The notes beneath the pieces are model-generated. The model was not told the origin of the DNA, made no database searches, and worked only from the letters and a program-made list of their open reading frames with translations. From IMG/VR virus record IMGVR_UViG_2049941000_000098: a stretch of 64,000 bases of DNA. One strand, given 5' to 3'. The DNA is from an uncultured virus (IMG/VR IMGVR_UViG_2049941000_000098). Lineage: Duplodnaviria; Heunggongvirae; Uroviricota; Caudoviricetes. Shown here one piece after another: positions 1 to 23,309 of this stretch (positions are counted from its first letter, which is position 1; the number at the start of each line of letters is the position of its first letter). A program made the position numbers and the translations under genes.

Positions 1-404
1 TTTGTTGAATACGTAAATTCCCAATCACCTTCAGGACTAACCGAACAAACAATATTTGTGAAATCTGAATCCACAACCCCGTCTGTTTTGAATTTGACAT
101 TAAACGTGATACTTCCGTTCGGTTTCGGGGGTGTATAATCGACAACCGTGTTGTTTTCTATGTAAAAATATTTTTGTGTATAATCTTGATAGTCATAATA
201 ATAATACACTTTATCGTTAAGTGGCGTGATTTCTGGATCAATATCACCGTTCAAATAATAATTATAATAATTATTATCCATTAACGGAACTTGTTCATAT
301 CCTGCGTAATCGGGTTCAAACTGTGCGTTGTTTATCGCTGTACCCCGTACNNNNNNNNNNTCTTTCTTTTGCGTCAACAGCCAATGCCAATGTCGTATCG
401 CCAT
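1..404 (-). CDS. Partial hypothetical (probably virion) protein running off the window edge
   Basis: Manual translation MAIRHWHWLLTQKKE-gap-VRGTAINNAQFEPDYAGYEQVPLMDNNYY..., open to position 1; lies just downstream of the fibre gene. Confidence 0.5.
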   Translation of the reverse strand, partial: MAIRHWHWLLTQKKXXXXVRGTAINNAQFEPDYAGYEQVPLMDNNYYNYYLNGDIDPEITPLNDKVYYYYDYQDYTQKYFYIENNTVVDYTPPKPNGSITFNVKFKTDGVVDSDFTNIVCSVSPEGDWEFTYST

Positions 405-423
405 AATATCGTCATGTTTGTTG

Positions 424-2315
424 TTATACTACTGTCATTTCACCGAATATCGCCGTACCCTTGTAGAATGAAACCAAATAAACGTTTCCCGACACATATT
501 CAGGTTCTTCACCAATCAACATAAATCCTGATGGTAACGTTACTGTCATTCCCGACGCATTATCACCCGCCTTAAAGAACACGTTTGCCTCAAAGTCCGT
601 ACTGTCGTTCACCCCGTTGCCATCTGTGATTGTAAGGGTTGTTACCGCCGAACCCGCATTCACGCTTGGTGCGGAATACGCCGATGCGCCCACGAAATAG
701 TTGTTACCGTATTTGAACGTGATTGACGCGGCGGAGTTGGTGACGGTCGGTTTGTTATCTGTTATTGGAACATCAATTGTAACCGACGCGTAACCCGATT
801 GTGTGTTGTCCGTCGTCAACGTCACGTTACGTCCGCCGATAATATCGAACGCCTTGTTTGAATCCGTCGCCAACAATTGCGTATTGTCAACCTGAATAAC
901 ACGGAATGTGTTTAAATCCGACGGGGTTGCCCATGACAATGTAGTGCCGTTGGTTGAAAGGAATTTGTTGTTATGTCCTGTTTGTGACGGAATGGGGTCA
1001 GTTCCAACAACCGTCAATACTCCGTCTTTTGCACTTACACTTACCAAACCTGTACCTATGATTTGTATTCCGCCCGATTTCGCGTTGTTCTCAACAATAT
1101 TCATGTATGTCGCGTCATTGTTGGTTGCCGCCGTCGCGTTCGCCGTCGCGTTTGTTGCGCCTAATACGGGGGTCGCCGTGTAATGTGTGTTATCCCATGT
1201 GACATTCGTACACAGTTTGCCGTTTGAATCCACACCGACAGCGTATAATTTCGGTGTTGTTCCAATCGTACCCAAACTTGTTTCACTGTTCAATTTTACC
1301 TTGAATGTCCCGTTGTTNNNNNNNNNNAACCGACACCCGCCGTGTATGTTGCCGTAAGGTCATCCTCCCATGACAATGTGCCACTGTTATCAACAACCTT
1401 TAAACATTTTCCCGATTTGTTCGTGCCGTCAGGCAGAACGCTTGGTAATGTCACCGTTTGGGCTGTACCCGTAGATGGTGTAAGGGATAACGTGTTTCCG
1501 TTTAATCCAAGTGAATATTCGGTGTTCGCCCACGGAACATTGACAAATGCCTTATCGTTGTTATCCAAACTAACAGGGTAGTTTCTCGTACCCGTGGTGT
1601 TGTCCGTGTAACCTATTTTGATACCACCTAATGCCGTTGATGTCGCCGCCTGTATTGCTGACGATATGTTCATGGCAAGCATGTCAAATTTATACACGGG
1701 GTTTTCANNNNNNNNNNNNNNNNNNNNNNNNNNNNNNNNNNNNNNNNNNNNNNNNNNNNNNNNNNNNNNNNNNNNNNNNNNNNNNNNNNNNNNNNNNNNN
1801 NNNNNNNNNNNNNNNNNNNNNNNNNNNNNNNNNNNNNNNNNNNNNNNNNNNNNNNNNNNNNNNNNNNNNNCCGTGTTCACAACAACGATGTTTGTACCTG
1901 CGGAAATCGGAGTGGCAACACCTTCGTATTCAATAAAGTCATTTGTCAATACGGTATCGTCCGAAAGATTGTAAACATCACCCGTCTTTGTGTCTGAATC
2001 CAACAATGTGGAATGAATGTCCGTACTTGCCAAACTGCCATGTACATGATATATTCCTGACAACAAAATGTCAATTTCATCTTTCGTGTAAGCGTCGGTG
2101 ATGTTGTAATCCGCAAGTGACTCGCCCGCATCGGCTTTTGTGTTCTCTAATTTTGCAAGCGCGGTGTTAAGATTGTCGATTTGTGTTATCGAACCCGTTT
2201 CACCGTTATTCACGTAATCCGTCATTTCAACACACTCACCCGTGTTGATTGGAATCCACAATTCGCTTGTGTCGTCCTTTTTATGTAATTGTACGATTCT
2301 TCTATTTTCAGCCAT
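424..2315 (-). CDS. Tail fibre-like protein (ORFs 1296..2315 and 424..1293 joined across a 10-N gap)
   Basis: Reading frame continues NNGTFKVKLNSETSLG after the gap; Thr/Asn/Gly-rich with repeated NYPVSLDNNDKAFVNVPWANTEY / LYAVGVDSNGKLCTNVTWDNTHY and GK.L...GTLSW fibre-type motifs. Confidence 0.7.
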
Positions 2316-2342
2316 CGTGTTACGATTTTAAATTGTTTTCCA

Positions 2343-2385
2343 CAAAAATAAAAAAATCCGTACAATTATAAAAATTATACGGATT
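2343..2385 (-). promoter_or_regulatory. Terminator-like hairpin followed by a Bacteroidota -7 promoter element (TATTTTTG)
   Basis: aatccgta...tacggatt inverted repeat then T-run on the minus strand; TAnnTTTG at 2343-2350 upstream of the fibre gene. Confidence 0.5.
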
Positions 2386-2395
2386 NNNNNNNNNN

Positions 2396-2719
2396 TTTCC
2401 ATGATTCTTCGCCTTTGACATAAATCATAGAATAAAAATCAAACGAATCGCATATGTCACAACCAACCGAAATAAATATGTTGTGTTTTTCCCGCAACCA
2501 CCTGAACACCTGTTGGTATGTCGGCGCGGACACCGCCCAACGCGTGAACGGTTCGTTTCCTTTTTTCAACCCGATGTTACAAACCTTATTATCGGTTTCA
2601 ACGAATGATTCCGACCCGACCTGTTTCGGGTTGTAAAACCACGCGGCGTGACACCATTCGTCAAACGACTTGTCGTTTGACAAATCGGCTACTTCAAACG
2701 ATAAACAATCATCCTTCAT
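2396..2719 (-). CDS. Hypothetical phage protein, 3' end in gap
   Basis: ORF with APTYQQVFRWLREKHNIFI, a motif style typical of Bacteroidota phage accessory genes. Confidence 0.6.
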
Positions 2720-2724
2720 AAGTT

Positions 2725-2850
2725 CTATTCTCCTTTCTGTGCCTTAAGTCCAAGTTCAAAGAAATGATTTGCTACACGTCTTAAACTTAATTTGTGACCT
2801 ATTGTTGCTTTTTCAAAATTAGTGTCTATAAACTGAGATATTTCCTTGTT
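2725..2850 (-). CDS. C-terminal fragment of a hypothetical phage protein
   Basis: Ends ANHFFELGLKAQKGE-stop; 5' part lost in the gap. Confidence 0.45.
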   Translation of the reverse strand, partial: NKEISQFIDTNFEKATIGHKLSLRRVANHFFELGLKAQKGE

Positions 2851-2860
2851 NNNNNNNNNN

Positions 2861-3514
2861 TCGTAATTGATACCGTGCAATTCGATTTGGTCTTTATCGA
2901 ACATCGGGTCGTTACCCATGAATATGTAAACCTGTTCGGCGATGTAATCCTTGACGGCGCGGTCGTTCGTTGTATCGATATAACTGTCGAGGTTGTTCAT
3001 CATGTACGTGAACGCGTATTCGTATGTCTGTATCAATTCATTGTTTTTTTCCTGTTCGGACAAATCCGAATAGTTGCGCATTGTCCTCGATTCTTCGTTA
3101 TAGTAAAAATCGTTCACGCGGCGCGAATCAGATATTTTTTTAAACGAATAATTGTTGGTTTTCCAATCGAACGATGCCATAGTGCTTACCTCTTCATAAT
3201 CCGTTTGTGTGTCACCATCTTCATCCTCGTATTCGTATTCCTCCCAATCTTCACCCGCCGCGAAATCCTGTTGCTCAAACCCCTCGCCCAATCCGTCGCT
3301 GTTTTGCCCGCTGACCCAATCGGATATTTTCGCCAATTCGTCATCGGTAAGGTCAATCGCGGTATCAAGATAAATCAAACCGTATTGTTTGTCCTGTAAA
3401 TCCCATTGGAGATTCACGATGTCCGATGGTTGAAGACGTGTCAATTTCAAATAATCGAGGTCATCGATTAAATATTCCGTCATATTATCGGCTTGTAAAT
3501 ATTTACGAGCCGCG
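2861..3514 (-). CDS. Acidic hypothetical protein, both ends in gaps
   Basis: Open frame with WVSGQNSDGLGEGFEQQDF and internal KKISDSRRVND. Confidence 0.6.
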
Positions 3515-4050
3515 NNNNNNNNNNNNNNNNNNNNNNNNNNNNNNNNNNNNNNNNNNNNNNNNNNNNNNNNNNNNNNNNNNNNNNNNNNNNNNNNNNNNNN
3601 NNNNNNNNNNNNNNNNNNNNNNNNNNNNNNNNNNNNNNNNNNNNNNNNNNNNNNNNNNNNNNNNNNNNNNNNNNNNNNNNNNNNNNNNNNNNNNNNNNNN
3701 NNNNNNNNNNNNNNNNNNNNNNNNNNNNNNNNNNNNNNNNNNNNNNNNNNNNNNNNNNNNNNNNNNNNNNNNNNNNNNNNNNNNNNNNNNNNNNNNNNNN
3801 NNNNNNNNNNNNNNNNNNNNNNNNNNNNNNNNNNNNNNNNNNNNNNNNNNNNNNNNNNNNNNNNNNNNNNNNNNNNNNNNNNNNNNNNNNNNNNNNNNNN
3901 NNNNNNNNNNNNNNNNNNNNNNNNNNNNNNNNNNNNNNNNNNNNNNNNNNNNNNNNNNNNNNNNNNNNNNNNNNNNNNNNNNNNNNNNNNNNNNNNNNNN
4001 NNNNNNNNNNNNNNNNNNNNNNNNNNNNNNNNNNNNNNNNNNNNNNNNNN

Positions 4051-6424
4051 TTCGTCATGTATGGTACATGCAAATTTGACGTTCGCCGCCCAATCTGCGT
4101 CGGTGTCAAACAACCGTTTGAATTTACACAAATCGATTCGGATAATATCCGCGCCCGTGTTTTTGTTCACGAACCCCTGATTGTCGTACATCTGCATGTC
4201 GGTTATCTTCGTACACGAACCGACGGGAACTGTTTTTCCTTGTTTCAAACACCAACTGATAGAACGTAACCGAACCCGTTTGTGACGGCGGAACGAAACC
4301 CTGAATTTGTCACGCCGCGCATTATATAGTACGTTGTACCCGAATATCGACGCGACCGAACGTAACGACACCGCCGCGTTGTAATCCGCTGAAAACCAAT
4401 GTCGGGTCAACGCAAGTTTGAACAACGCGCTGTTCAACGTCACGTTGTCGTCCTTTATTTCCGTGTCACGCTTGCACAACATCACGAACAACGACGCGCA
4501 TTCGCCCGACGGACGGAACACGAATCGGTTGAACCGCCNNNNNNNNNNGTTTCTTTCGTAGTTCAGCCAACCAAACGCGTTTTTTTATACCGTTGCGCAA
4601 CGCCGCGACCTTCGGTGCTTTTTTATTACCATACACAAACGAATGGTTTTCGTCGCATATCATCCATTCCCCGCGTCTGAACAAACAGAACAACGGTTCG
4701 GATTCCCCACGGTGTGTCGGTATCAACAAACCGCCGTGAACGTCTTTCAATCTTCGACCGACGACGGATTCCATACGGACAGCCGAATGTTCGGTTTCCA
4801 AATGTCCCGACAACGGGGTGCATCCCTGTATCGGGGAATTGCAAGCACAACGGTCTGCCGCGCGGTAATCACCCCTTTGATACGAATCGAACAACATACG
4901 GGGTCGCCCGAACAACGTCGATACATAACCGTTTTTGCGTGCCTTATCGACCATCCGTTTACGCCACTCGTCCAAACCGCCCAAATGGTTGAAATATTTA
5001 GCCAACATTTCGCGGCATTCATCCACAGTTATTTTCAAACGTTTCGCGATGGAATATTCCGTCGCCCCGTATATCACACTGAAATTCAACTGTTTTATCC
5101 GTGAACGGCTTTCGTCGTCCGTTTGTCCGAACATCGTTTCGGCGATATGTCGGTGAATATCCTTTCCCTCGCGTATTGGTTCGATAAGGTTTTCGTCCTT
5201 ACTGAAACATGCCGCCAACACCATTTCCTCGCCGCTGTAGTCGGCGGACACCCAAACATACCCGTCGGGACATACGAACGCGTCACGCAATCCGCCTTTG
5301 CATTTAACCGTTTTGACCGCGTTGTCGGGGTTGTCGTCAATCGTGAAACCGATTCCGTCATCGGTTCGGTGGACATAACGCACAACGTCTTTTTTCTCAA
5401 CCGCCTGGATGTTGAAATCGTTGAAAAATGTGTTACCCTTCGCGCCGCCTGACGACAAACGACCTGTCGCCGCCGTCACCGTGGAATATCGGACGCGCAT
5501 CGTGTCCCCGTAATCCAACATCTTTTCAAGCGTGGTTCGGTACACGGACAGTTCCCCGTAACGTTTCACCAACATAACAACGGGATGAGCGGAATCCTTC
5601 ACGGCGTAATCCGAAAGGCTTTCCACCGTCCCGATACATTCACGCACCAAATCAAGACGTTTCACGGGGTTGTCGATTTCCGCGTCATACCCCAACAATC
5701 CGCGTAGTTTGTATTTGATTTCGTCGATGTCGGTGTTCACGTTGTTCAATTCCTCCCGCACGCGTTCTTTCGATATTGGTAGTTCGGTGTTCTTACATAT
5801 CCAACGCACCACCTCATTTGATTCGTTATCCAATTGGTATATGTTGTGAATCATGTCATAGGTTTTCCAAACGTACCGTGCCAACATGATTGTCAACACC
5901 GTTTTCTGTGCCGCGAATATGAAAGCCACGTCGGGGTTGTGTTCCGCGAAATTCAATCGTTCGAGGTCGAGTTCGTAAATCGGAACGTCGGGGAAAAACA
6001 GATGCGCGTATTCGTTGCGTGTCGGACACGGTTTGTTGGTACACAGGTACAACATTATCTGTGTGTCGTGCGTGTGGTTCAAACCGCATCGGATTCCCTC
6101 TTTTTCAAGGAATGTGAACACGAAATCACGATTGTAAAAATAAACCCCGTTGTTGTCAATTATTTTCTGAACCAAAGCGAACGTCGGTTCGGTGTCGATG
6201 TTATTACCGACCGTGTGCCGTAACGGAATATAATACGATGTGATTCTGTCCCCGTCCAACACCGCGATTGACACCCCGACAATGGTGTCTTTATTGTAAT
6301 CGTAACCCGTTGTTTCGACATTCAACGCGACGGTATGCCCGTCGGTTTGTATCGACCGTAAATCGTCCGTGGTTTGGACGAGGTACAATGTGTGTTTGGT
6401 GTTGCTGTATTCGGTTTCTAACAT
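4051..6424 (-). CDS. polA: Family A DNA polymerase with degenerate 3'-5' exonuclease domain and an intein; 3' end in gap
   Basis: TGRLSS, motif A SADYSGEE, motif B RSRIKQLNFSVIYG, GYVSTLFGRPR, NSPIQG/TGADII and motif C TIHDE; ORF 4466..6424 and the 5' part of ORF 2725..4521 join across the gap at 4539-4548. Confidence 0.92.
4159..4822 (-). mobile_element. Intein in PolA (about 220 aa plus unknown gap length) with degenerate endonuclease remnant
   Basis: Interrupts conserved NSPIQG|TGADII; begins Cys (CTPLSG), block-B-like ICDENHSF, ends GFVNKN, followed by Thr+1. Confidence 0.85.
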
Positions 6425-6483
6425 ATTTCGTTCGCTTTTAATATCGTGTCTAATATATTGTTGTTATGTCCTGNNNNNNNNNN

Positions 6484-6769
6484 GTTGTTGTAACGTGGAC
6501 TGTTTCAACGGTTCTATCACCATCGAACCCTTTATGTCATCCAATCGTTTCCTGTCGAATGTGTACAACAAATCGTAAACCGTGTAAAAACGGTTACAAC
6601 TGAAACACTTGATTCCGTTGAAATATCTTTTGGCGGCGGGTGTGTTCGTGTTGACGTGGAACGGGCAAAAGAATTTCCCCGACGGGATGTCCCGACCGAA
6701 AATCCTTCTGTATTCCGTATCGATGTTCAACGTGCCGTTGACGTAATCTTTGAACGAGTGTAAATCCAT
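6484..6769 (-). CDS. Stand-alone primase zinc-binding (CHC2-type) protein
   Basis: FFCPFH...TPAAK...IKCFSC motif; immediately upstream of polA; 3' end affected by gap. Confidence 0.75.
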
Positions 6770-6804
6770 TTCGTGTTGTTGTTATCGGGTGCGAATGTAA
6801 TAAA

Positions 6805-7119
6805 TTATTCATTACATAATGTCAGTACGTCCCCAATTTTATATTTGTTCCGTTTGTCATAAAAACAGAACGTTTGGTGTTTGAAACCCTCGCTGTTGTT
6901 TCTACTGAAAAACGTGTTTTCTATCGTGTATTTCGCGATAAGTATTTCACTTGGGTCGTTTGAATAACATTGTTCTATCTTTACAACCACAAATTTGACA
7001 TCTTTGATTTTGTTGGTGTTCGCATTGAAATGTATTTTTTCTTTGGTGAATGCGGCTATTAGAATCAATAACAAAAACACCAATATGGTTACCATACAAA
7101 AAATTTCACTTGCATTCAT
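6805..7119 (-). CDS. Hypothetical protein with N-terminal transmembrane helix
   Basis: 104-aa ORF, hydrophobic N-terminus. Confidence 0.6.
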   Translation of the reverse strand: MNASEIFCMVTILVFLLLILIAAFTKEKIHFNANTNKIKDVKFVVVKIEQCYSNDPSEILIAKYTIENTFFSRNNSEGFKHQTFCFYDKRNKYKIGDVLTLCNE

Positions 7120-12974: not shown

Positions 12975-13001
12975 ATACAACATTTGTTACGAAAAAAAAA
13001 T

Positions 13002-13034
13002 AAAAAAATGCGGAAACACTTTCATGAATCCGCA
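13002..13034 (-). terminator. Probable intrinsic terminator
   Basis: tgcgga...tccgca stem followed by a T-run on the minus strand. Confidence 0.55.
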
Positions 13035-13077
13035 CCATCACACAAATAAAAAATATACTTATGAATTTGAAAAGGCT

Positions 13078-13834
13078 TTAATTAACATGTTTGCCGTCGG
13101 CGGTAAATTCCCAATCGTTACCGATAATGAAATCTTCAACAACTTCTTCGTCGTAACAACGGTCAATTTCACGTTCCCATTGGTTTCTTAACGCGTTACC
13201 CAAACCAGCAAAAAACGCACGAATACCTTTGGGTTTTTCTTCACCGCTTAACACATCGTCAATATATTGTGATACCGCTTCATCTGTGTACACACCTGTA
13301 AAATACCACGAATCTTTGTATTTGAAATTGTTTTTAACTATATTTAACCAATCGACAACGGTTTCGTAACTATCTTCGTCAAGAGAATACTCGTTGCTGA
13401 TATTCCANNNNNNNNNNNNNNNNNNNNNNNNNNNNNNNNNNNNNNNNNNNNNNNNNNNNNNNNNNNNNNNNNNNNNNNNNNNNNNNNNNNNNNNNNNNNN
13501 NNNNNNNNNNNNNNNNNNNNNNNNNNNNNNNNNNNNNNNNNNNNNNNNNNNNNNNNNNNNNNNNNNNNNNNNNNNNNNNNNNNNNNNNNNNNNNNNNNNN
13601 NNNNNNNNNNNNNNNNNNNNNNNNNNNNNNNNNNNNNNNNNNNNNNNNNNNNNNNNNATCATCTTTGGTTTTTAAACCCATTTGTTCGGTGATTGCTTTA
13701 GACGTTTCAATAAAATCGTCGTTCACCCATTCACATTCTTGTTCACCAACCTCTTGGGTGTATAGTTTTAAAACGTTTTGTTTTGCCTGTTCGTCCAATT
13801 CATCGAACGCGTATAATTCAATACTTCGTGCCAT
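13078..13834 (-). CDS. Acidic hypothetical phage protein spanning a gap
   Basis: MARSIELYAFDELDEQAK... joined to ...FIIGNDWEFTADGKHVN. Confidence 0.65.
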
Positions 13835-13855
13835 AATCGTATTTATATTTAATGT

Positions 13856-14062
13856 TTAAGACCATCTGTTAATTTCACTCAATGCCTCACTCCACGCATT
13901 ATACGCTTGAAACATCAAATCAACCGCCTTTGTTGGAAATCCCAAACTATCCGCGTAATCCGCAAGATTTTGTATTTGGTCGCCCATCATTTCGGCACGT
14001 CCAATAAATCTTTCGGCTTCGGGGTCAAAACCCTCGTAATCATTATCTTTTATCCGTTTCAT
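13856..14062 (-). CDS. Small protein with MKRIKD leader
   Basis: 68-aa ORF. Confidence 0.65.
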   Translation of the reverse strand: MKRIKDNDYEGFDPEAERFIGRAEMMGDQIQNLADYADSLGFPTKAVDLMFQAYNAWSEALSEINRWS

Positions 14063-14344
14063 ACCCTTACTGTTTTTTAGATTTGTTATACATAATATTC
14101 AATATCTTGAGTCTCGTAATCTGCAAAATATTCATTATCATATTGTGCAACACTATCGGCAGGTATATACGCTTCGCCATCAAAATCAAAACGACCCTGT
14201 TTTAATATGTTTGATAATTCGTTTTGACCGTTACCATTCATAATAGCATCCGCTTCTTCAGGGGTGCAATCCAAACTAATACCGATACGCATCCATATCG
14301 TTCTGTTTTCGTTCATATCCTTACTGTTTTTTAGATTTATTGTA
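14060..14344 (-). repeat. 31-bp imperfect direct repeat (14060-14090 / 14314-14344) flanking a single gene
   Basis: tacaataaatctaaaaaacagtaaggatatg vs tataacaaatctaaaaaacagtaagggtatg, 28/31 identical. Confidence 0.9.
14086..14316 (-). CDS. Small acidic hypothetical protein (cargo between direct repeats)
   Basis: 76-aa ORF. Confidence 0.7.
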   Translation of the reverse strand: MNENRTIWMRIGISLDCTPEEADAIMNGNGQNELSNILKQGRFDFDGEAYIPADSVAQYDNEYFADYETQDIEYYV

Positions 14345-16478
14345 ATAGTTGTATTTAGTTCCGTAAATAAGAACCGAGCCTGACGGTACGACTTTCGGCA
14401 TAGTCGTCAGTCCCTCCTGTGCGAACATCGCGCCGCCCTCAACGCCCTCGTCCTTGATAAATTCAGGTACGTCGTCGCACACCCAACATTCGTCGGACAT
14501 CTTGCGTTTGTAGAATTTACTGTCGATGACACCCAGGTTGTTGGTTTTCGCCGCCGCCGAATAATAGTCGTCCGCAGGTACGCAATTGTCGGAAATGATT
14601 TTCTCGACATTTGCATCCTCGGCGTTCAATTGTTCCGCAACCTTTTCGCTTGAACCCATAATCGGAATCCAATTCTGTACCGTGCCGTTCTCACATTCCA
14701 CTTGGATTACGGGCGACAAATCACCATAGTTTACCGCCGCCGCCGACAAACATNNNNNNNNNNNNNNNNNNNNNNNNNNNNNNNTCACTGTCCGATATTT
14801 TGAAATTGTATTTTTTCAATATCGGTAATTTATCCTTCAACGCGTCGATAACCTTGTTGGCGCGTTTGTCACCGTTGACCAACAGTTTTGCCAACAAAAC
14901 AGCGTTGCGTTCGGAATCGTGGACGTTCAATTTTATTTTGTCAACCTTGTCCTTGTCCTCGTCCTCATCGTCCTCATCCTCGTCATCGTCCTCGTCGTTG
15001 AATATGTCTTCCGATTCACCGTTGTCAAGTTCGTCACCCTCGCCGCTTTCGGTTTCAATATCCATATTCAGGTTGTCATCACCCGATTCGTCACCGTTCA
15101 ATTCCTCATTAATCGATTTTTCTTCGGGGTTAATGTCGTCAACCGACAATTCCGACAGGGCTTCAAGTTCGGATGTGTCACCGTTGGCGAACGCCTCCAA
15201 TGCCGAACCCAAACTTTCAAGCAATGTTTTTCCGTCACCGCCGTTACCCGATTCCTCACCCAAACGTTCGTCGATTTGGTCGATAATGTCGTCTTTCACT
15301 TTCTGTGTGTGCGCCGATTTTTGCATCGATATTTCGGTCACGGAATGTGCGAACGCCCTGTCCATGCAATCTTTGACCCGCACGCGTTCGCCGCAACGTT
15401 TAGTGTAACGTTCGACAATATCGTTCATTGAATCACTTACATTCATCAGGCGACCGTTCAACATGTCGTCAGCAAGGTTGTATGCGTCGTCGATAATCAG
15501 GGCTTCCACGTCGTCAAACGATTCTTTCACCGTGTCTTCAACGCGTTTGCGTTCAATGCGTCGTTCGGGACGCGGGAATTGTTTTCGATTGTCAGCGATG
15601 CGTTTTGACGGTTGTGGACGCTTTCTTTGTGAATCACCGAGATTCAACTTGACATCGGGTGTTTCGTCTTCGGTTTCGTTATCCAAATCATCCCCGCCGT
15701 CAATATCCAAATCATCACCGCCGTCAACATCCAAATCGTCGGATTCGGGTTCGTCATCACCAACAACACCGTTATCTTCGTCGATGGTGTCACCGAACGC
15801 GATTGTCAACGCGGTCTGTAACGATTCGGTTTCAAATTTGTTATCCTCAAGAAAATCATATAGAATGTTCAACTCCTCTTCGTCGGCGGTCAGGTCAAGT
15901 TCGTTGTCGATGACCTTGTTGATTATGTCAATCACAGCCGCTTCCTGTGGGTCGCTTTCATTCAATATGTCTTTGTATGATTCCAACATACGCAGTTCGT
16001 CGTCTTTGCGCGAATACGCGTATTTTGTCAATAGGTCGTTGATGACATACAAATCCTGAATCTCGATTTTACGGTTCAAATCACGGCGTTCCAATTCGCC
16101 GCTATCCAAATCGTCACGAACCTTCACAGCGTTAAGGGCGCGTAACACCTTGCGACGTTCCCCGTCCGACAAACGCGACAGGAATTTGCGGCGTTCCGCG
16201 TTCCCCATATCCGCGATTTCGTCAATCGCGTGGCTGTCCAACACAATGTATTGTGTCTTTTGCGGACGGTCAACCTGTGTAATCCGTGAAATGCGTGACG
16301 GTTTGTAGTGTGACTTGTCGCTTATGCGCGACAATGTTTTATTGTTGTTTTTGATTGCGTTAATCGCGTCGTCAAGCACGGTTCTTTTTTGCCGCACGAC
16401 TTCAAGTCCGCGTGCAGAACCCTCGGTGCGTTCTTCACCGTTGCGGATTTTTACCAAACCTGTTAGAAAATCACTCAT
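14321..16478 (-). CDS. Large acidic protein, putative prohead scaffold/core protein (two ORFs joined across a gap)
   Basis: D/E-rich low-complexity tracts, DDLDxDGG repeats, many [KR][IV]xD motifs; own promoter. Confidence 0.55.
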
Positions 16479-16503
16479 TTCGTTTTTAATTTATAAACGT
16501 TTA

Positions 16504-16534
16504 CAAAAATATGTTTTTTATGTTACAATTCAAA
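16504..16534 (-). promoter_or_regulatory. Bacteroidota sigmaA-type promoter
   Basis: TTTG-N19-TATTTTTG upstream of the 16478 start. Confidence 0.65.
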
Positions 16535-16539
16535 ATTTT

Positions 16540-17871
16540 TTAGAACGGGGGCAAATCCTCAAAATCACCGTGCATTTCGGTAAACGAATAGTCAATATCG
16601 TTCATATCCGCCCTGTCAAACTTCTTACCCACCATCATAACCGACGGGGTGAATGACGTTTTGAACGGAACAGGAATCGGAACACCAAGACGGTTTTTCA
16701 ACATAGACACTTTCGTTTCCTGTGTTATCTTCATCGCGTCCGACGTGTATAGGAAAACACAATATGACGACGAACGTTCGACCTCGTTCAGGTCGGCAAT
16801 AGCCTGTAGGTCGTACTGACCCTCACGACGTATCGCGCGTCGGTTGCCCTCGCGGTTGCACTGAACCGCCCACACCATCACGATTTTCTCACCGTTTTCG
16901 TTCTTGAATGTCTTCGCCGCCGACGTTAATTGTTTCAGGATAATATTGCCCGTTTCGGGGTACAATAGTTCCAACTGCCCCACATGGTCAACAATCACCA
17001 TATCCAAACCGCCCATCTTACGTTCCGCCGCCTTGAATAGTTTGTTTATCTTACGGTAATCGGTCATCACTTTTTTTGTGATTTTGGATTCGTCGATAAT
17101 CAACAGGTTGGGGACGACATCACGTTTGAAATCGGGTTCAAGGGAAACAACTAATTCCCCGACGGACGAATCCAACGTGTGATGTTCCATATTGTGTACG
17201 TCAACCGCCAACTCACGCTCGAACATATACCGCGTTTCAAACTGTTTCCACACCATGTCGGGCGGCAACTCAATCGACAATATCATCACTTTCTTACCGC
17301 TTGCGATGTTCGTGTACGCGGTGCTGTCACACAACGTCGTCTTTCCGTGTCCCGTGAACGCGCAGAATGAAACCACCGTGCCACGTTGGAATCCGTTTGT
17401 GGTTTGGTCAAGTTCGTCGATTCCCGTCATCAACCCGCTTTCAAGCGGCTTGTCAACGTCACCGTACAGTTCGGGTTTGCAATCGTCGAAATTGAACTCC
17501 GCGTCGGTTGTCGTTTCCGTGTCGTTCACCAACCGTGACAACCCGTTAAGCAAATCCGACGAGGTTGACGTTTCATTGATGACCTTTGTGGCGTTTTTTA
17601 AAAGGGTCTGACGCAAATAGAAGTCCACCATCGATTTGTAGTGCAGGACTATTTCCGCTTCCGTCTTGGCTATCGATTCGGGTTTGTCGTACAGGTTCGC
17701 GAAATAATCCGCCGACGGGTAATTCCCGTGTTCCGCACATTTCAAACAGTAATCCGCGACATTCTTGTCTTTTTGATTGATAAACGGAAGTGACGACATG
17801 TTGTACAACATATCGTCAATAGGGATTGACTGTTTCAACCCCGCGATTGAATAGAAGAATTTTGCTATCAT
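16540..17871 (-). CDS. dnaB: DnaB-like replicative helicase
   Basis: MTGIDELD..TNGF, Walker A AFTGHGKTT, ILSIEL, VIVDHVGQL, QCNRE, LKNR; ATG at 17871. Confidence 0.9.
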   Translation of the reverse strand: MIAKFFYSIAGLKQSIPIDDMLYNMSSLPFINQKDKNVADYCLKCAEHGNYPSADYFANLYDKPESIAKTEAEIVLHYKSMVDFYLRQTLLKNATKVINETSTSSDLLNGLSRLVNDTETTTDAEFNFDDCKPELYGDVDKPLESGLMTGIDELDQTTNGFQRGTVVSFCAFTGHGKTTLCDSTAYTNIASGKKVMILSIELPPDMVWKQFETRYMFERELAVDVHNMEHHTLDSSVGELVVSLEPDFKRDVVPNLLIIDESKITKKVMTDYRKINKLFKAAERKMGGLDMVIVDHVGQLELLYPETGNIILKQLTSAAKTFKNENGEKIVMVWAVQCNREGNRRAIRREGQYDLQAIADLNEVERSSSYCVFLYTSDAMKITQETKVSMLKNRLGVPIPVPFKTSFTPSVMMVGKKFDRADMNDIDYSFTEMHGDFEDLPPF

Positions 17872-17879
17872 AGATTTTT

Positions 17880-18080
17880 TTATTTGTGATGTCCTAAATG
17901 GTATTTGTTGCAAACGTCACACAGGTACGGTTTGTATTTGAAACTGATACCGTTTTCGTCCCGATAACGTTTCGCGTCGGCGGGGGTATCGAAAGCCATC
18001 TTGGGTTTCATAACGCCACCCTTGCGCGTCCAATGCTGTTTCAGACCGCCGCTGTATATCGATTTCATATCACCCCCCAT
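17880..18080 (-). CDS. Small Zn-ribbon-like protein
   Basis: K.AF.T...A...PYLCDVCNKYHLGH. Confidence 0.65.
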   Translation of the reverse strand: MGGDMKSIYSGGLKQHWTRKGGVMKPKMAFDTPADAKRYRDENGISFKYKPYLCDVCNKYHLGHHK

Positions 18081-18177
18081 TCGTATTTTTCTTTGTAGTC
18101 CATAAATTTAAATTGTTTAAATTGTTATAGTTCAATATCTTTATCAATTCCACATAGTTATCTATAATATTACGTAT

Positions 18178-18755
18178 TTAATATAAATCTTCTGAAAATA
18201 ACTCACCGTCTACCCCATTCGAGCCATCTATTTGTCCTGCATTTAGTGCAATTTTATATGCTTCTTTCCTATTTACAAATACACCTTTATTAGTTATAAA
18301 ACCTTGAGNNNNNNNNNNNNNNNNNNNNNNNNNNNNNNNNNNNNNNNNNNNNNNNNNNNNNNNNNNNNNNNNNNNNNNNNNNNNNNNNNNNNNNNNNNNN
18401 NNNNNNNNNNNNNNNNNNNNNNNNNNNNNNNNNNNNNNNNNNNNNNNNNNNNNNNNNNNNNNNNNNNNNNNNNNNNNNNNNNNNNNNNNNNNNNNNNNNN
18501 NNNNNNNNNNNNNNNNNNNNNNNNNNNNNNNNNNNNNNNNNNNNNNNNNNNNNNNNNNNNNNNNNNNNNNNNNNNNNNNNNNNNNNNNNNNNNNNNNNNN
18601 NNNNNNNNNNNNNTAAAAGGTAGTATATCACAAATCATAGGATGCCTGTATCCACATAATACAAATCCAGTTTCTATACCATAACTTTTCTGAAATTTAT
18701 ATTCAAGTCCATTATCGTAATGAACTGCGGCACAAAGTATGTAGTCAGTTGTCAT
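18178..18755 (-). CDS. Hypothetical phage protein spanning a gap
   Basis: ILCAAVHY...VLCGYRH ... QGFITNKGVFVNRKEAYKIA...ELFSEDLY-stop. Confidence 0.65.
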
Positions 18756-18774
18756 ATCTCAAAGTTTTTTAAGT

Positions 18775-18951
18775 TCAATCAAGAATTTTAAATGGCACTC
18801 CAATATCACCACTCACTACTTCTGCGTTATCATATTCAATAATGATTCTTGAGTGTGGTGGAAAATTCTTCTGCAACCACTCGTTAAAGGGTTTTGCGAG
18901 TTCCTTGAACTCATTCTCCATTTCGATTTTTTCTTTTTTAATACTTTTCAT
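18775..18951 (-). CDS. Small hypothetical protein
   Basis: FKELAKPFNEWLQKNFPPHSRIII...; 5' end adjoins a gap. Confidence 0.5.
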   Translation of the reverse strand: MKSIKKEKIEMENEFKELAKPFNEWLQKNFPPHSRIIIEYDNAEVVSGDIGVPFKILD

Positions 18952-18962
18952 ANNNNNNNNNN

Positions 18963-21544
18963 CATTGTAAAGTGATTGTAAACTATCTTCACAACATTTA
19001 TCAACCATATTTATAGCATATTTTAAATCTTCCATCTGCTCATCAGTTGGTTTCCAATGGGACTGCGGATTATGATTAAGCCATTTATCCATCCATTGCC
19101 CAAGTTCTGATTCTTCTTTGAGTGTTATTACGTTAGTCACTCTTTGAGAATGCACAATACGGCATAACCACTTTAACATTTCCTCATCCTCCTCACTCCA
19201 CTCTTGTTTTTGTTTTGGTTGCACTCTGTTTTTAAGTGAATTTAGAAAATCAATATTTTTTCTGCATTCCTGCTTTGATGGAAATATTCCCTCCTCAAAG
19301 GAAAACACGATTCTGGTTAACGTTTCCTCATCCTCCTCACTCCACGTAGGATTCTGCTTAATGTTTATTTTATCATCTTCCAATAATTCTTCGTATTGTT
19401 CATCATCATTGTCAATTCCCATCATTACTAATACCTTTTTATCCGCATCCCATTCATAGCCTGCTTCTTTCATTTTTGAAAACAAAAGGTCACATTGTTC
19501 TTTTGTTGCAGGATGAATATCGCATTTATTTGCTTCTGTGAGAGAATAGAGACTGTCAGTTACAAATTCTTTACCATCANNNNNNNNNNNNNNNNNNNNN
19601 NNNNNNNNNNNNNNNNNNNNNNNNNNNNNNNNNNNNNNNNNNNNNNNNNNNNNNNNNNNNNNNNNNNNNNNNNNNNNNNNNNNNNNNNNNNNNNNNNNNN
19701 NNNNNNNNNNNNNNNNNNNNNNNNNNNNNNNNNNNNNNNNNNNNNNNNNNNNNNNNNNNNNNNNNNNNNNNNNNNNNNNNNNNNNNNNNNNNNNNNNNNN
19801 NNNNNNNNNNNNNNNNNNNNNNNNNNNNNNNNNNNNNNNNNNNNNNNNNNNNNNNNNNNNNNNNNNNNNNNNNNNNNNNNNNNNNNNNNNNNNNNNNNNN
19901 NNNNNTTGTTTCTACTCCTTTGTGATTTTTAATTTTGTAATTATACAATGAAATTTCGTTTTTGTAACAAAGTACATCACCATCCTTTGCATCTTCAATA
20001 GTCCAAAGTCTGAATGTTTTATCCGCAGTTTCAATATCTATAAAGTAGTCATCGTCACGATAATACATATCATCTTTTATTGACATAACCTTGAAGGTAA
20101 AATCAATACCGTTTGTAATCCAATCGCCAACCTTGAATTTCGATTCAATCTTATCGGCAGGGTTCTGTTCAATCTTCTTCAATTCTTTCTTTTCGGCATC
20201 CCATTCATAGCCTGCTTCTTTCATTTNNNNNNNNNNNNNNNNNNNNNNNNNNNNNNNNNNNNNNNNNNNNNNNNNNNNNNNNNNNNNNNNNNNNNNNNNN
20301 NNNNNNNNNNNNNNNNNNNNNNNNNNNNNNNNNNNNNNNNNNNNNNNNNNNNNNNNNNNNNNNNNNNNNNNNNNNNNNNNNNNNNNNNNNNNNNNNNNNN
20401 NNNNNNNNNNNNNNNNNNNNNNNNNNNNNNNNNNNNNNNNNNNNNNNNNNNNNNNNNNNNNNNNNNNNNNNNNNNNNNNNNNNNNNNNNATCAATCTCCA
20501 TTTTATAATGGTGATATTGATGTATGGTAGCAAGCAGATTGTATTCTCCTGCCAAATGTCTATACACTTGTTGCCTTTAATAATTCGTTTTAATAATTTT
20601 ACTTTCATAGTTATTTAAATTAAATTAGTTGAACTTACTATCTTTTCAATCGTAATGGGTGTTTATATCCCATTAGATTTCCCAAATATCGTCGTGCCTC
20701 GNNNNNNNNNNAATAAGAGGTCACGCTGTTCTTTGGTTGCTGGACAAACCTCTTTATCAGACCACCAATGATTACCTGGACTTATAAGAAAGAGGTTTAC
20801 TGAATCAATGCCACAATATGCTACGGGACAATTAGGATTATTGGAATCTAATAAACCCTTAAAAATAAATGGTCTGTTGTCTTCTTTTGTAACAAGCACA
20901 TCACCATCCTTTGCATCATCAATAGTCCAAAGATGAAATTCACTATCTATATAATCAATATTTGAAAAACCTTTTGTACCATCAATAAATTCGATGTCAT
21001 ACGTATTGTTTTTGATATTCGTTATCAATGTAGGATTAAGTCCGTCACAGATAATCCAATCACCAACTTTAAACTTTGGTTCAACCTTATCAACAGGCTT
21101 CTGCTCGACAAGTTCGTAGTCATCTTGTTCACTAAAATGTGCAACTAATCCGCCTTCAAGACGATACTCTTTGTCCAACATATCAACTTGAATGATTTTA
21201 TGAGAATTATGTATATAATCTCCACCAAGTTCCTTATGTATAATCATATCGCCTTCGTGAAACTTCGGTTTAACTTTATCAACAGACTTCTGCTCACCTT
21301 GCTTTTCAAGCCAAGCAATAACATCTTTATTATCAAAGTTATTGAGTAGTTGAGCATTCCATTCAAAATATTCAATAAGTTCTTTCCTTATCATCTCATC
21401 ATCACTCTCCGCAAGTTCTGGAAAAAGATACTCTAATGTTTGTTTAACATCACTGTACATTTTTTGCTTCCCTTCAAAAAAGTCTTTCACTTTTTGGAAA
21501 ACATACTCATAGGCTTTCGCTCTCTCGTAAGTAGTCATATTCAT
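18963..21544 (-). CDS. Long modular repeat protein, fragmented by gaps and a misplaced insert (20490-20701)
   Basis: Repeated PKFKVGDWI, LWTIxDAKDGDVL, PATKEQxDLL, MKEAGYEWDAxKK and WSEEDE modules across ORFs 20663..21544, 19907..20226 and 18963..19578. Confidence 0.6.
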
Positions 21545-21726
21545 ACTCTTCTAAATTTAGTTAGACACAATTTGTATATGCGCAGGAACACCAATGATTC
21601 ATCTGCGTAGGTCTCTGTGAACTTCATAAAGTCACTTTCATAGTCTTTCGCCCATGATATGCACAAAAGACCTATCCTTATATTCCACTTAAACTCGTAC
21701 ATATCCGCAAGGTTTATAATCACCAA
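21541..21726 (-). CDS. Hypothetical protein
   Basis: 61-aa ORF in a coupled run. Confidence 0.45.
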   Translation of the reverse strand: MVIINLADMYEFKWNIRIGLLCISWAKDYESDFMKFTETYADESLVFLRIYKLCLTKFRRV

Positions 21727-21884
21727 AGTATTTAATAACCCAAAACAACCAACCTACCCTACAATCAAACAATCTCCATTTTATGATGGTGATATTGATG
21801 TACGGCAGCAANNNNNNNNNNNNNNNNNNNNNNNNNNNNNNNNNNNNNNNNNNNNNNNNNNNNNNNNNNNNNNNNNNNNNNNNN

Positions 21885-22126
21885 GAACAATACCATTCCG
21901 TGTCAAACTCAATCATGGTCTGAAATTCGTCCGCGAACCAATTTTCACCCTCATACGATGTCAAACCCGAAAGGAATATCTGTTTAAACGGTTTTTTTTC
22001 ATCTTTGAATAGTGTTTCCCGAATCCCCACAACCTCTCGCTCACACATCACATAAGAACAATCCGTAACATATTCCATTCCGACCCACCAAACCTTTGTG
22101 CCAATCGGATGTTCAAATTCATTCAT
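21885..22126 (-). CDS. Hypothetical protein, 3' end in gap
   Basis: MNEFEHPIGTKVWWV... Confidence 0.55.
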
Positions 22127-22601
22127 TAGCCTGTGGGTATTTCAGTTTGTACGGACAATTCGGGTCAATAAACACGGCGACCTTTCCGCCGTTGTGTACC
22201 GACGTGTCGATGAAGTTCTCTAACATGTTGATTATCTTTTCGGATTCACCAATCGCCTTTGTGACCGTAATGAAACTTACGGGCGAATTGATTTCTTCGA
22301 CGGCGTTGACAACCAAATTCAACGCGGTGTTCGTTGTGTACGGAGTGACCTCCGCGTTCTTTTCAAACGCGAACTGCATCGCGACCGATTTCGCTATGTC
22401 TTTTTTACGACTGTACAACACGTTGTGATGTTCCGTGTTTTTGACGGGCGTGTATTTGAACGCGTCCGACTTTTCCCGTAGTATGTTGCGCATCAGGAAA
22501 CGCGCATGGATTTGCCAAAACCGTTTGCATTGGCTGTAAAACAGGTATTGACATTCCGTACAACCTGCCTGTTTCGCATACTGACATTGTTGGTAACTCA
22601 T
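22119..22601 (-). CDS. Hypothetical protein with N-terminal Cys cluster
   Basis: CQYAKQAGCTECQYLFYSQC. Confidence 0.65.
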   Translation of the reverse strand: MSYQQCQYAKQAGCTECQYLFYSQCKRFWQIHARFLMRNILREKSDAFKYTPVKNTEHHNVLYSRKKDIAKSVAMQFAFEKNAEVTPYTTNTALNLVVNAVEEINSPVSFITVTKAIGESEKIINMLENFIDTSVHNGGKVAVFIDPNCPYKLKYPQANE

Positions 22602-22634
22602 AATTTATTTGTGTTTAAAAATTCCTTTTCAAAG

Positions 22635-22798
22635 TGGTTGTGGTTGGGGTCGCACCAACCTTGCGTTCCGATTGATTGTTGTTGTGATAGGATATAAAAA
22701 TCGGAAACCCCGTTTTGTTTTTCAAACGTTTTTGTTGTGCCATTGTGGAGTGTGCTTTTTCGGGGGCATTGCGGCTCTTAATCGCAATCTTTACAACC
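22635..22798 (-). ncRNA. Putative enlarged tRNA-like structured RNA (~164 nt)
   Basis: Terminal stem GGTTGT/ACAACC+A enclosing four hairpins: ATTGCG/CGCAAT, CCCCG/CGGGG, TTCCGATT/AATCGGAA and T-arm-like GTTGG-TGCGACC-CCAAC. Confidence 0.55.
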
Positions 22799-22966
22799 GT
22801 GTCGGGTGGGCGGCTTTTTGCAACCATATCTCTTGTTGGTTCGCCCACCCAAAAAACAAAGAACCCTATTTTTACGTCGTTTCGGANNNNNNNNNNGGAC
22901 GCACGGTTGTCAAGCCGTGTTACGGTCAGGAAAGGGTGTTAAGCCAAAACCTTCCGTATGGACGTG

Positions 22967-23038
22967 TAGTCGGTGGGGGAATCGAACCCCCATTACGAGA
23001 ATGAAAATCTCGTGTCCTAACCGTTAGACGAACCGACC
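22967..23038 (-). tRNA. tRNA-Glu (anticodon TTC)
   Basis: GGTCGGT/ACCGACT acceptor, CGAGA-TTTTCAT-TCTCG anticodon arm, GGGGG-TTCGATT-CCCCC T arm; no encoded CCA. Confidence 0.95.
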
Positions 23039-23244
23039 GTTTCTGTTTTCGCTTTGTTGTTTTTGCGGAAATCGCGAACCAAATAAAACAAAAACGCAAT
23101 CATAATGATTGTAACGAATATGTTTAACACGGGAACAAACCCCGCGTACCGTATAATGTTCCTGTTCGACCNNNNNNNNNNCGCCAAAAGGCAACCGCCG
23201 ACCCCGAAACCGTACAATATTGCGAATATCAATATAAACATCAT
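23017..23244 (-). CDS. Small membrane protein (3' end uncertain, overlaps tRNA)
   Basis: Two hydrophobic stretches; preceded by TACATTTG at 23270-23277. Confidence 0.45.
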   Translation of the reverse strand: MMFILIFAILYGFGVGGCLLAXXXXSNRNIIRYAGFVPVLNIFVTIIMIAFLFYLVRDFRKNNKAKTETVGSSNG

Positions 23245-23309
23245 CGTTCAATTCTTTTTAAATCGTTGGCAAATGTAATAATGTTTTTGTTACACGCAAC
23301 ATTTATTTT

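Follow-up and report, generated by a model that had tools for sequence, protein, structure and literature searches.

The window, a 64,000-nucleotide (nt) stretch of DNA from an uncultured Caudoviricetes virus (IMG/VR record IMGVR_UViG_2049941000_000098), contains a 164-nt element that folds into a four-way junction upstream of a group of replication genes. The minus strand carries, in order, a promoter-like motif, a 75-amino-acid (aa) open reading frame (ORF), a gene for glutamate transfer RNA (tRNA-Glu; present in three of four related loci), a GC-rich hairpin termed P0, the four-way-junction element, a 33-nt tail, the 160-aa ORF160, small ORFs, and a gene for a DnaB-like helicase (Table 1). 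The element is a new small RNA family, without a family in Rfam, of an uncultured ~142-kilobase (kb) gut-phage lineage that has no cultured relative. An earlier note on this DNA had described the element as an enlarged tRNA-like cloverleaf downstream of tRNA-Glu, and had offered a tRNA mimic, a decoy, or a tRNA with an unusual intron as its identity.

Table 1 Features of the element and of the surrounding locus in the window
Feature	Coordinates	Strand	Remarks
Promoter-like match of TAnnTTTG type, TACATTTG	23270..23277	minus	nearest upstream match on the gene strand; 26 nt before the 75-aa ORF; pattern match only
75-aa ORF, predicted membrane protein	23017..23244	minus	3' end runs into the tRNA gene
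tRNA-Glu(UUC), no encoded CCA	22966..23038	minus	ARAGORN and Rfam; 167 nt upstream of the element
P0, GC-rich hairpin, 9-base-pair (bp) stem GGGUGGGCG/CGCCCACCC	22804..22850	minus	inverted repeat I4; 5 nt upstream of P1
Whole four-way-junction element	22635..22798	minus	164 nt; homologs 177, 181, and 192 nt
P1 5' strand GGUUGU, closing stem at acceptor position	22793..22798	minus	partner 22636-22641; unchanged in 4/4 sequences
P1-H1 linker AAAG, 4 nt		minus	from the element sequence
H1, hairpin at D-arm position, AUUGCG/CGCAAU, 6 bp, 9-nt loop AUUAAGAGC	22768..22788	minus	
P2, stem at anticodon position, GCCCC/GGGGU	22707..22767	minus	22763-22767 paired with 22707-22711; 51-nt A/C-rich hypervariable loop
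P3, stem at variable-arm position, UUCCGAUU/AAUCGGAA, 8 bp	22699-22706 with 22666-22673	minus	25-nt hypervariable loop; inverted repeat I5
Junction CGCAA, P3 to H4	22661..22665	minus	5/5 identical in all six pairwise comparisons
H4, hairpin at T-arm position, GGUUGG-UGCGACC-CCAACC, 6 bp, 7-nt loop	22642..22660	minus	abuts P1, no spacer
P1 3' strand ACAACC and unpaired A (22635, discriminator position)	22635..22641	minus	7/7 or 6/7 identical in all pairs
A-rich tail, 33 nt, from the element to the AUG of ORF160	22602..22634	minus	
ORF160, first downstream gene, 160 aa	22119..22601	minus	no family

Fold and conservation of the element

The element is composed of a closing stem P1, a hairpin H1, two stems P2 and P3 with large loops, and a hairpin H4. 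The minimum-free-energy fold of the 164 nt, calculated with ViennaRNA, is this four-way junction, with an energy of -37.6 kcal/mol, and contains every cloverleaf-type stem that had been proposed for the minus strand. The H1 hairpin is separated from the P2 stem by one or no nucleotide, and the P2 stem encloses 50-67 nt of variable sequence across the homologs. The fold of a single sequence marginally beats chance (z -2.16 for the window element, with 3 of 200 shuffles as stable; z -1.41 for the homolog L001, with 18 of 200 shuffles as stable). It is the comparison of homologs that places the fold beyond chance.

The homologs were reached via the neighboring ORF160, and the comparison includes four sequences: the window, L001, L004, and L005. 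L001 is a stretch of G001, a complete phage record of 142,338 bp with terminal repeats, while L004 and L005 are metagenome contigs. Folded individually, L001, L004, and L005 form the same five helices as the window element. RNAalifold applied to a MAFFT alignment of the four sequences yields the same junction with 30 pairs. The consensus energy is -24.7, compared to -9.7 +/- 3.0 in 300 column shuffles that preserve conservation (z -5.0; none of the 300 reaches it), which upholds the element as a real conserved structure. Pairing is retained in 93.3% of the 120 pair cells of the alignment, whereas sliding the partners by 1-3 columns reduces this share to 38-54%.

Covariation, which the earlier note had proposed as a check, is present in the alignment. 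Four pairs are changed on both sides, compared to 1.2 +/- 0.9 in shuffles, of which 8 of 500 reach four, and six slid controls contain no such change. The automatic alignment under-counts covariation, since P2 and P3 shift register between the sequences. Compensatory changes occur in four of the five helices, and the closing stem contains one U-A to U-G change, in L004. The P2 helix has the forms GCCCC/GGGGU, GUUCCCGA/UUGGGAAC, and AUUCCCU/GGGGAAU in individual sequences. The P3 helix occurs as UUCCGAUU/AAUCGGAA, as UUUCCGAU/GUCGGAAA, and, in L001, as UUUCUGACU/AGUCAGGAA. The H4 helix is formed by GGUUGG/CCAACC, GGUCGG/CCGACC, GGGCGG/CCGCCC, or GGACGG/CCGCCC, the last with one A-C mismatch. 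The H1 helix contains a C-G to U-A double change in L001 and a U-A to U-G change in L005.

The four-fold synonymous sites of ORF160, which are 50% identical between the window and L001 (42 sites), provide a neutral yardstick for the element. Between the same two sequences, the P1 5' strand with the linker is identical in 10/10 positions, the CGCAA junction in 5/5, and the P1 3' strand with the following A in 7/7, and the loops of H1 and H4 each differ in one base. The P2 loop is identical in 27/71 positions and the P3 loop in 7/31, and both vary in length. Identity above the neutral yardstick shows that the core is held and the two big loops are not. Among all homologs, 8 of the 9 nt of the H1 loop are conserved, and the UGCGAC of the H4 loop is unchanged.

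The element overlaps a 77-aa ORF (22615-22848, minus), the conservation of which had been set as a refuting test. This ORF is not conserved. In L004, a 1-nt insertion shifts the frame after 'MAQQK', and the frame ends at element position 130. In L001, a stop at element position 49 closes the frame, which has no internal AUG. The longer open frame of L005 reads the 3' part in another frame than the window ORF does, and the insertions and deletions in the loops are not multiples of three. That the element is a protein-coding sequence is therefore a negligible prospect, despite the frame being open in the window and longer in L005. The fold energy is no guide to the strand, since that of the antisense strand is equally good or better. 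The main helices have eight G-U pairs on the gene strand, each of which becomes A-C on the other strand, compared to a single A-C, and 118 of the 119 G001 ORFs of at least 120 aa are on the strand of the element. The G-U counts and the gene direction place the RNA on the gene strand. The element is thus very probably a selectively maintained, non-coding, structured element of RNA type.

The four-sequence covariance model scores 168-189 bits on the four loci, and the element is present in a single copy in the complete G001. The search of the metagenome_contigs collection provided three loci, of which two include the DNA upstream. In viral_contigs, the G001 contig alone was identified by DNA patterns, both exact and degenerate. 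Protein-guided scans of the same collection, using ORF160, the ORF160 alignment, and the helicase alignment, found G001 and four weak, unrelated loci (L008-L011) without a model match. Neither protein and pattern searches of genome_contigs nor blastn and tblastn against GenBank phages found a homolog. Other assemblies contain nine protein clusters that are related to ORF160. The stretch is present in 22 public runs, all of DNA and labelled as ruminant or gut metagenomes, of which two are possible sources of the window. Assembly of four DNA runs produced contigs of 151-330 nt from ORF160 and the 3'-terminal third of the element, with no variants inside the element.

Resemblance of the element to tRNA

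The arms of the element are in tRNA order. The spacing between H4 and P1 is zero nt in all four loci, and the two helices add up to 6+6 = 12 bp. The 12-bp stack, the 7-nt loop, and the following A are all found in the window, L004, and L005; L001 has the same plan with a loop that is able to close further. The H4 loop has U1, C3, G4, and A5, which fit the tRNA positions U54, C56, G57, and A58. Canonical tRNA and transfer-messenger RNA (tmRNA) share with the element the arm order, the 12-bp acceptor/T stack, the 7-nt loop with U1, C3, R4, and A5, and the discriminator A. The four-sequence covariance model aligns the 3' ~31 nt of the element to the variable loop, T arm, and 3' acceptor strand of tRNA-Glu, ending at the discriminator. 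The scores are 16.5 bits for the window and 14.2 bits for L004, and the tRNA of L001 has no reported match. In the T-loop plan described in PMC4810234, positions 1 and 5 are paired and position 3 is free for pairing with the D loop, and the UGCGAC of H4 fits this plan. According to the same source, RNase P, RNase Z, and the CCA-adding enzyme measure the acceptor/T helix and clamp the elbow (PMC4810234).

The element differs from tRNA in its core and in its lower half. It has 6/6 bp in the acceptor/T stack instead of 7/5, and it lacks U8, G18G19, an anticodon loop, the G3-U70 pair, and the tag reading frame of tmRNA. The consensus of the tRNA core includes U8, G18-G19, and U54-U55-C56. In the element, the linker AAAG replaces U8-N9, the 6-bp hairpin H1 has a loop without GG, the position of U55 in the H4 loop is occupied by G, 5 nt separate P3 from H4, and the acceptor-position stem has 6 bp, not 7. 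The Rfam tRNA family (RF00005) has no match over 22635-22798, either at the gathering score or at E <= 10. The earlier claim of tRNA likeness therefore stands for the top half, with its 12-bp stack, 7-nt loop, and unpaired A, and does not extend to the core nucleotides or to a match with tRNA models. A fair description of the element is a mimic of the top half of tRNA, not a tRNA.

The Infernal/Rfam and ARAGORN checks that the earlier note had proposed call tRNA-Glu(UUC) alone and nothing over the element. A permissive Rfam 15 scan of positions 22300-23300 with E <= 10 was equally empty over the element; the nearest match, of 17.8 bits to a small nucleolar RNA family with a gathering score of 100, is a chance match at 22451-22634, outside the element. 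The absence of a tmRNA alanine acceptor signature, as had been observed, is confirmed by U3-A in place of G3-U and by the lack of a tmRNA call from ARAGORN (-m, relaxed threshold) in any of the four loci. The tmRNA families of Rfam match the T arm of the real tRNA only, with 13.2 bits.

A decaying tRNA gene, or one interrupted by an intron, would account for the order of the arms and for the 3' 31 nt being colinear with tRNA. However, none of the four homologs contains a 7-nt anticodon loop on a 5-bp stem, the big loops are hypervariable, and ARAGORN run with default settings and introns calls none of the four loci. With the threshold relaxed to 80% and introns allowed, ARAGORN predicts tRNAs with the exact ends of the element in three of the four loci, but with a different anticodon in each. 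We rejected these predictions as noise, since 400 shuffles produced 129 such calls and 614 natural slices produced 167. Moreover, the core is not decaying but maintained by purifying selection. The intron proposed earlier is thus not supported, and a decaying or interrupted tRNA is a very improbable identity of the element.

The location next to tRNA-Glu holds for the window, where the two are 167 nt apart on the same strand, but not for L005, which contains the element and no tRNA. The link to tRNA-Glu, the sole tRNA of G001, is therefore not obligatory. The membrane-protein ORF of L005 ends with ...SETTIK-stop directly before a conserved GGTTCTTT block (L005 100-150). In the window, L004, and L001, the tRNA and its trailer follow a GAAACG, and a second GAAACG with a remnant of the ORF end is located behind the tRNA insert in the window and L004. 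The tRNA-Glu with its hairpin-rich trailer resembles an insertion in the 3' end of the 75-aa ORF (window 22897-23045, minus; L004 1440-1600). The insert is bordered by the GAAACG direct repeat in both sequences, and the present end of the ORF is 21 nt within the tRNA. Given the uninterrupted ORF end in L005 and the GAAACG repeats, the tRNA looks like a cassette gained or lost beside an older element, and its adjacency is not a defining property. The GGTTCTTT block upstream of P0 is probably a relic of the end of the membrane-protein gene; it was rejected as a repeated promoter-like motif, with five scattered sites per genome in two genomes. A 13-nt stretch of the tRNA trailer, 22902-22914, is 92% complementary to 22789-22801, which includes the P1 5' strand and the bases before it. 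This stretch could compete with P1 in the window and L004, and it is missing from L001 and L005.

Genomic neighborhood

The window and G001 are collinear relatives with roughly 50-90% amino-acid identity, block by block. In G001, the genes upstream of the element encode an amidase and large unknown proteins, which are probably structural. ORF160, small ORFs, and the DnaB-like helicase gene are located downstream. This gene order places the element at the head of the replication block, inside a long co-directional transcription unit. About 4 kb of the window (18100-22100, minus), situated between the ORF160 block and the helicase gene, are missing from G001. This region is to a large extent N-masked and encodes several proteins with the repeated motifs W-S/T-EEDEE, KFKVGDWI, and LWTI-D/E-DAKDGDVL. 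The window also crosses the ends of G001, as its positions 1-6900 correspond to G001 133300-137900 and 13000-18100 to G001 1700-6200. Because it spans the ends of a terminally repeated record, the two assemblies are permuted or joined differently.

The counterpart of the promoter-like motif in L001 is TATATTTG. We take the -7 motif of the TACATTTG type to be characteristic of Bacteroidota promoters. The gene starts of G001 have an A-rich block at -14 to -12 and frequent TAnnTTTG-like motifs ~25-35 nt upstream, while Shine-Dalgarno-like motifs precede 10 of the 119 starts. A-rich starts without Shine-Dalgarno sequences, combined with TAnnTTTG, are presumably a Bacteroidota pattern, and these sequence features suggest a Bacteroidota host for the G001 lineage.

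ORF160 has no match in Pfam or PHROGs. Its AlphaFold model is good for residues 60-160 only and has no Foldseek match at E <= 0.001. The best VIA-align Z of 7.5, which is within the stated noise range, was obtained with P-loop/AAA+-type folds including DnaC and DnaA-III, and the atlas feature matches, at 0.79-0.80, are no more than leads. An alpha/beta domain with a borderline likeness to P-loop folds of the DnaC/IstB/DnaA-III type is predicted for the C-terminal 100 residues, and no Walker A motif is visible in the alignment. The N-terminal 30 residues, modelled with low confidence, contain four nearly invariant cysteines (C6, C14, C17, and C25). The predicted C-terminal fold is thus P-loop/AAA+-like at best, as a borderline case.

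The place of the element at the start of a block that includes a DnaB-like helicase would also suit a replication signal that acts at the level of DNA, such as an origin, or a site of single-strand initiation or primosome assembly with hairpins in single-stranded DNA. The equal folding of the antisense strand and the borderline likeness of ORF160 to DnaC, DnaA-III, and clamp-loader folds (Z <= 7.5) are consistent with such a role. However, the search for repeats revealed neither iterons nor direct repeats, the region is not rich in AT, with a GC fraction of 0.44-0.47, and the eight G-U pairs of the gene strand are A-C mismatches on the opposite strand. Four-way junctions that combine conserved loops with a strictly conserved junction sequence are typically found in RNA. 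We therefore regard a DNA-level function as quite improbable.

Candidate functions and their meaning

We tentatively favor the explanation that the mimic of the tRNA top half is used as a signal for processing or recognition in the operon RNA. From the conservation pattern and from the precedents of plant mitochondrial t-elements and T4 rnaC, we infer transcription of the element, its recognition by tRNA enzymes, and its cleavage. The element would be transcribed on the gene strand within a polycistronic RNA. The 6-bp closing stem would stack on the 6-bp hairpin H4 to form a 12-bp acceptor/T helix, and the hairpin at the D-arm position could close an elbow with the T-loop-like loop. The anticodon and variable-arm positions are retained as stems only, with loops free to drift. 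The top half may then be read by host tRNA-maturation enzymes, with RNase P cutting on the 5' side of G22798 and the cut after A22635 made by RNase Z or an equivalent enzyme. Such cleavage would set the 5' end of the replication-gene messenger RNA (mRNA) 33 nt before the AUG, and would free a stable tRNA-shaped RNA. Since CCA is not encoded in the phage tRNA-Glu, the host pathway for precursors without CCA would be active on the transcript of the element.

Several observations weigh against a processing signal, beginning with the departures from the tRNA core and the negative Rfam tRNA search described above. The covarying P0 hairpin 5 nt upstream and the conserved tail are unexplained by a bare tRNA mimic and fit a larger leader RNA. 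In L001, the H1 helix is weak, as it is reduced to 3 bp. The good fold of the antisense strand also stands against the proposal, as does the lack of enrichment of the promoter-like motif in the window (66 found, 58.7 expected), which weakens its assignment as a promoter. None of the 22 listed runs with the stretch is an RNA run. The sample itself is narrow. The window and L004 are near-identical outside the P3 loop. The ORF160 of L005 is of the L001 type, 97% identical at four-fold sites, and is joined to an element 5' half of the window type (H1 20/21; L005 235-930 compared with L001 and the window). L005 is therefore a recombinant, and its mixed ancestry places a breakpoint within or near the element. 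Given the near-identity of the window and L004 and the recombinant L005, the four sequences represent approximately three lineages with few independent events, and they are too few for statistics of R-scape grade.

The main rival of the processing signal, and a possible though not probable one, is a cis-acting leader. In this case, P0 and the four-way junction would form one 5'-untranslated domain of the ORF160/replication operon that has a protein or ligand as its binding partner, shields the 5' end of the mRNA, or modifies RNA polymerase, without a tRNA enzyme. The domain would control stability, antitermination, or translation of the downstream genes, and its tRNA likeness would be a coincidence of junction geometry. 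P0 and the conserved tail are better explained by such a leader. The consensus hairpin of P0 is present in 4/4 loci with double changes at two pairs, and P0 persists together with the junction in context folds of 315-390 nt of three loci. P0 is not a general terminator, because a U run follows it in L001 only. The tail is conserved between distant relatives, namely the window, L005, and L001, and differs in L004. The element ends close before the AUG of ORF160, with no match to a sigma-70-like promoter, a terminator, or TAnnTTTG in between. The unmet tRNA core rules (U8, G18G19, U55) also agree with a leader. However, no conserved alternative pairing indicative of a switch is present. The start region is not sequestered, as the tail is unpaired in all three context folds, and none of the known riboswitch or leader families gives a match, even with a limit of E <= 10. 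Furthermore, a leader leaves the 12-bp stack, the 7-nt U..C.A loop, and the unpaired A as coincidences without explanation.

The element could also act in trans, which we consider unlikely, although this is more probable than a DNA-level signal, followed in falling order by a decaying tRNA and a small protein. The released RNA, once cut out by RNase P and RNase Z and provided with CCA, might be stable and serve as a decoy or adaptor toward a host factor recognizing the acceptor, T arm, and elbow, with two freely evolving expansion arms replacing the anticodon and variable arms. As a decoy or sponge, it would titrate that factor and protect phage translation, for example from a tRNA-targeting defense nuclease, a modifying toxin, or a tRNA-binding enzyme. 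As an adaptor or decoy, it may have a partner such as a tRNA-directed defense enzyme, a modification enzyme, or the ribosomal or processing machinery. The limitation of conservation to the tRNA top half, with drifting anticodon-side loops, fits this role, as do the presence of the element in 4/4 relatives independently of tRNA-Glu and its one conserved copy in a complete 142-kb genome with one tRNA. Nevertheless, anticodon nucleases are ruled out as a target, because the element has no anticodon loop. Families of TROVE/Ro60 and of the CCA-adding enzyme are missing from G001, and no partner gene of tRNA biology was found; ORF160 is P-loop/AAA+-like at best. No promoter or terminator of the element's own was detected.

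The closest counterparts of the element in kind are rnaC (species 1) and rnaD (species 2) of phage T4, which are phage-encoded and annotated on the same strand directly after a tRNA gene. They have lengths of 139 and 119 nt, are larger than tRNA, and are small stable RNAs, rnaC being annotated as 'small, stable RNA'. T4 rnaC, located next to tRNA-Arg, folds into a multi-branched structure whose 5' and 3' ends form a closing stem beside a T-arm hairpin that has a 7-nt loop. However, its T arm is the canonical GGGUUCGAAUCCC, as opposed to the UGCGACC loop in the element. The two are not homologous, since model R1 scores 2.5 bits over rnaC and at best 6.0 bits in a 5-kb T4 stretch. Unlike rnaC, the element is positioned 33 nt before a protein gene in an operon, and one of its homologs lacks the tRNA.

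The t-elements of plant mitochondria are tRNA-like mRNA processing signals, as described in PMC1920247. According to this source, they are non-decoding tRNA-like folds in mRNAs, positioned by or instead of real tRNAs, and have been proposed or shown to direct cuts by RNase P and RNase Z that produce mRNA ends and a stable tRNA-like piece (PMC1920247). The t-elements were found by the T-arm motif GGTTCRANYCC (PMC1920247), which is missing in H4. They are tRNA-sized and belong to another domain of life.

The non-coding RNA YrlA mimics the D arm, T arm, and acceptor of tRNA and also occurs in phages, as stated in PMC4201824, where cleavage by RNase P and addition of CCA are reported for one member. 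In YrlA, the ends pair at the anticodon position to form the Ro60-binding stem (GNCGAAN0-1G), and a closed hairpin takes the place of the 'acceptor' (PMC4201824). In contrast, the ends of the element form the stem at the acceptor position, and the element has no Rfam match at E <= 10. TROVE/Ro60 (PF05731), the neighbor of YrlA, has 0 matches in the complete 142-kb G001, with positive controls in two genomes.

Small stable RNAs located beside phage tRNA genes, such as T4 species 1 and 2, have a function that was never solved, and the element represents an uncatalogued family akin in kind to them. Its unusually clear signature of selection, in which the top half of tRNA is frozen and the two would-be decoding arms drift, would mark the part of the tRNA shape that something in the host reads. 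The four-sequence seed model can be used for mining rumen assemblies, and the element is a concrete construct for assays of RNase P, RNase Z, and CCA addition. If tRNA enzymes cut the element, it would be a tRNA-type 'punctuation' of a phage operon at the border of late and replication genes. If it acts in trans, the element would be a candidate tRNA decoy, and may represent a functionally new class of phage RNA for counter-measures or host takeover. Such a role would be the first function ascribed to stable RNAs associated with tRNA clusters, such as T4 rnaC.

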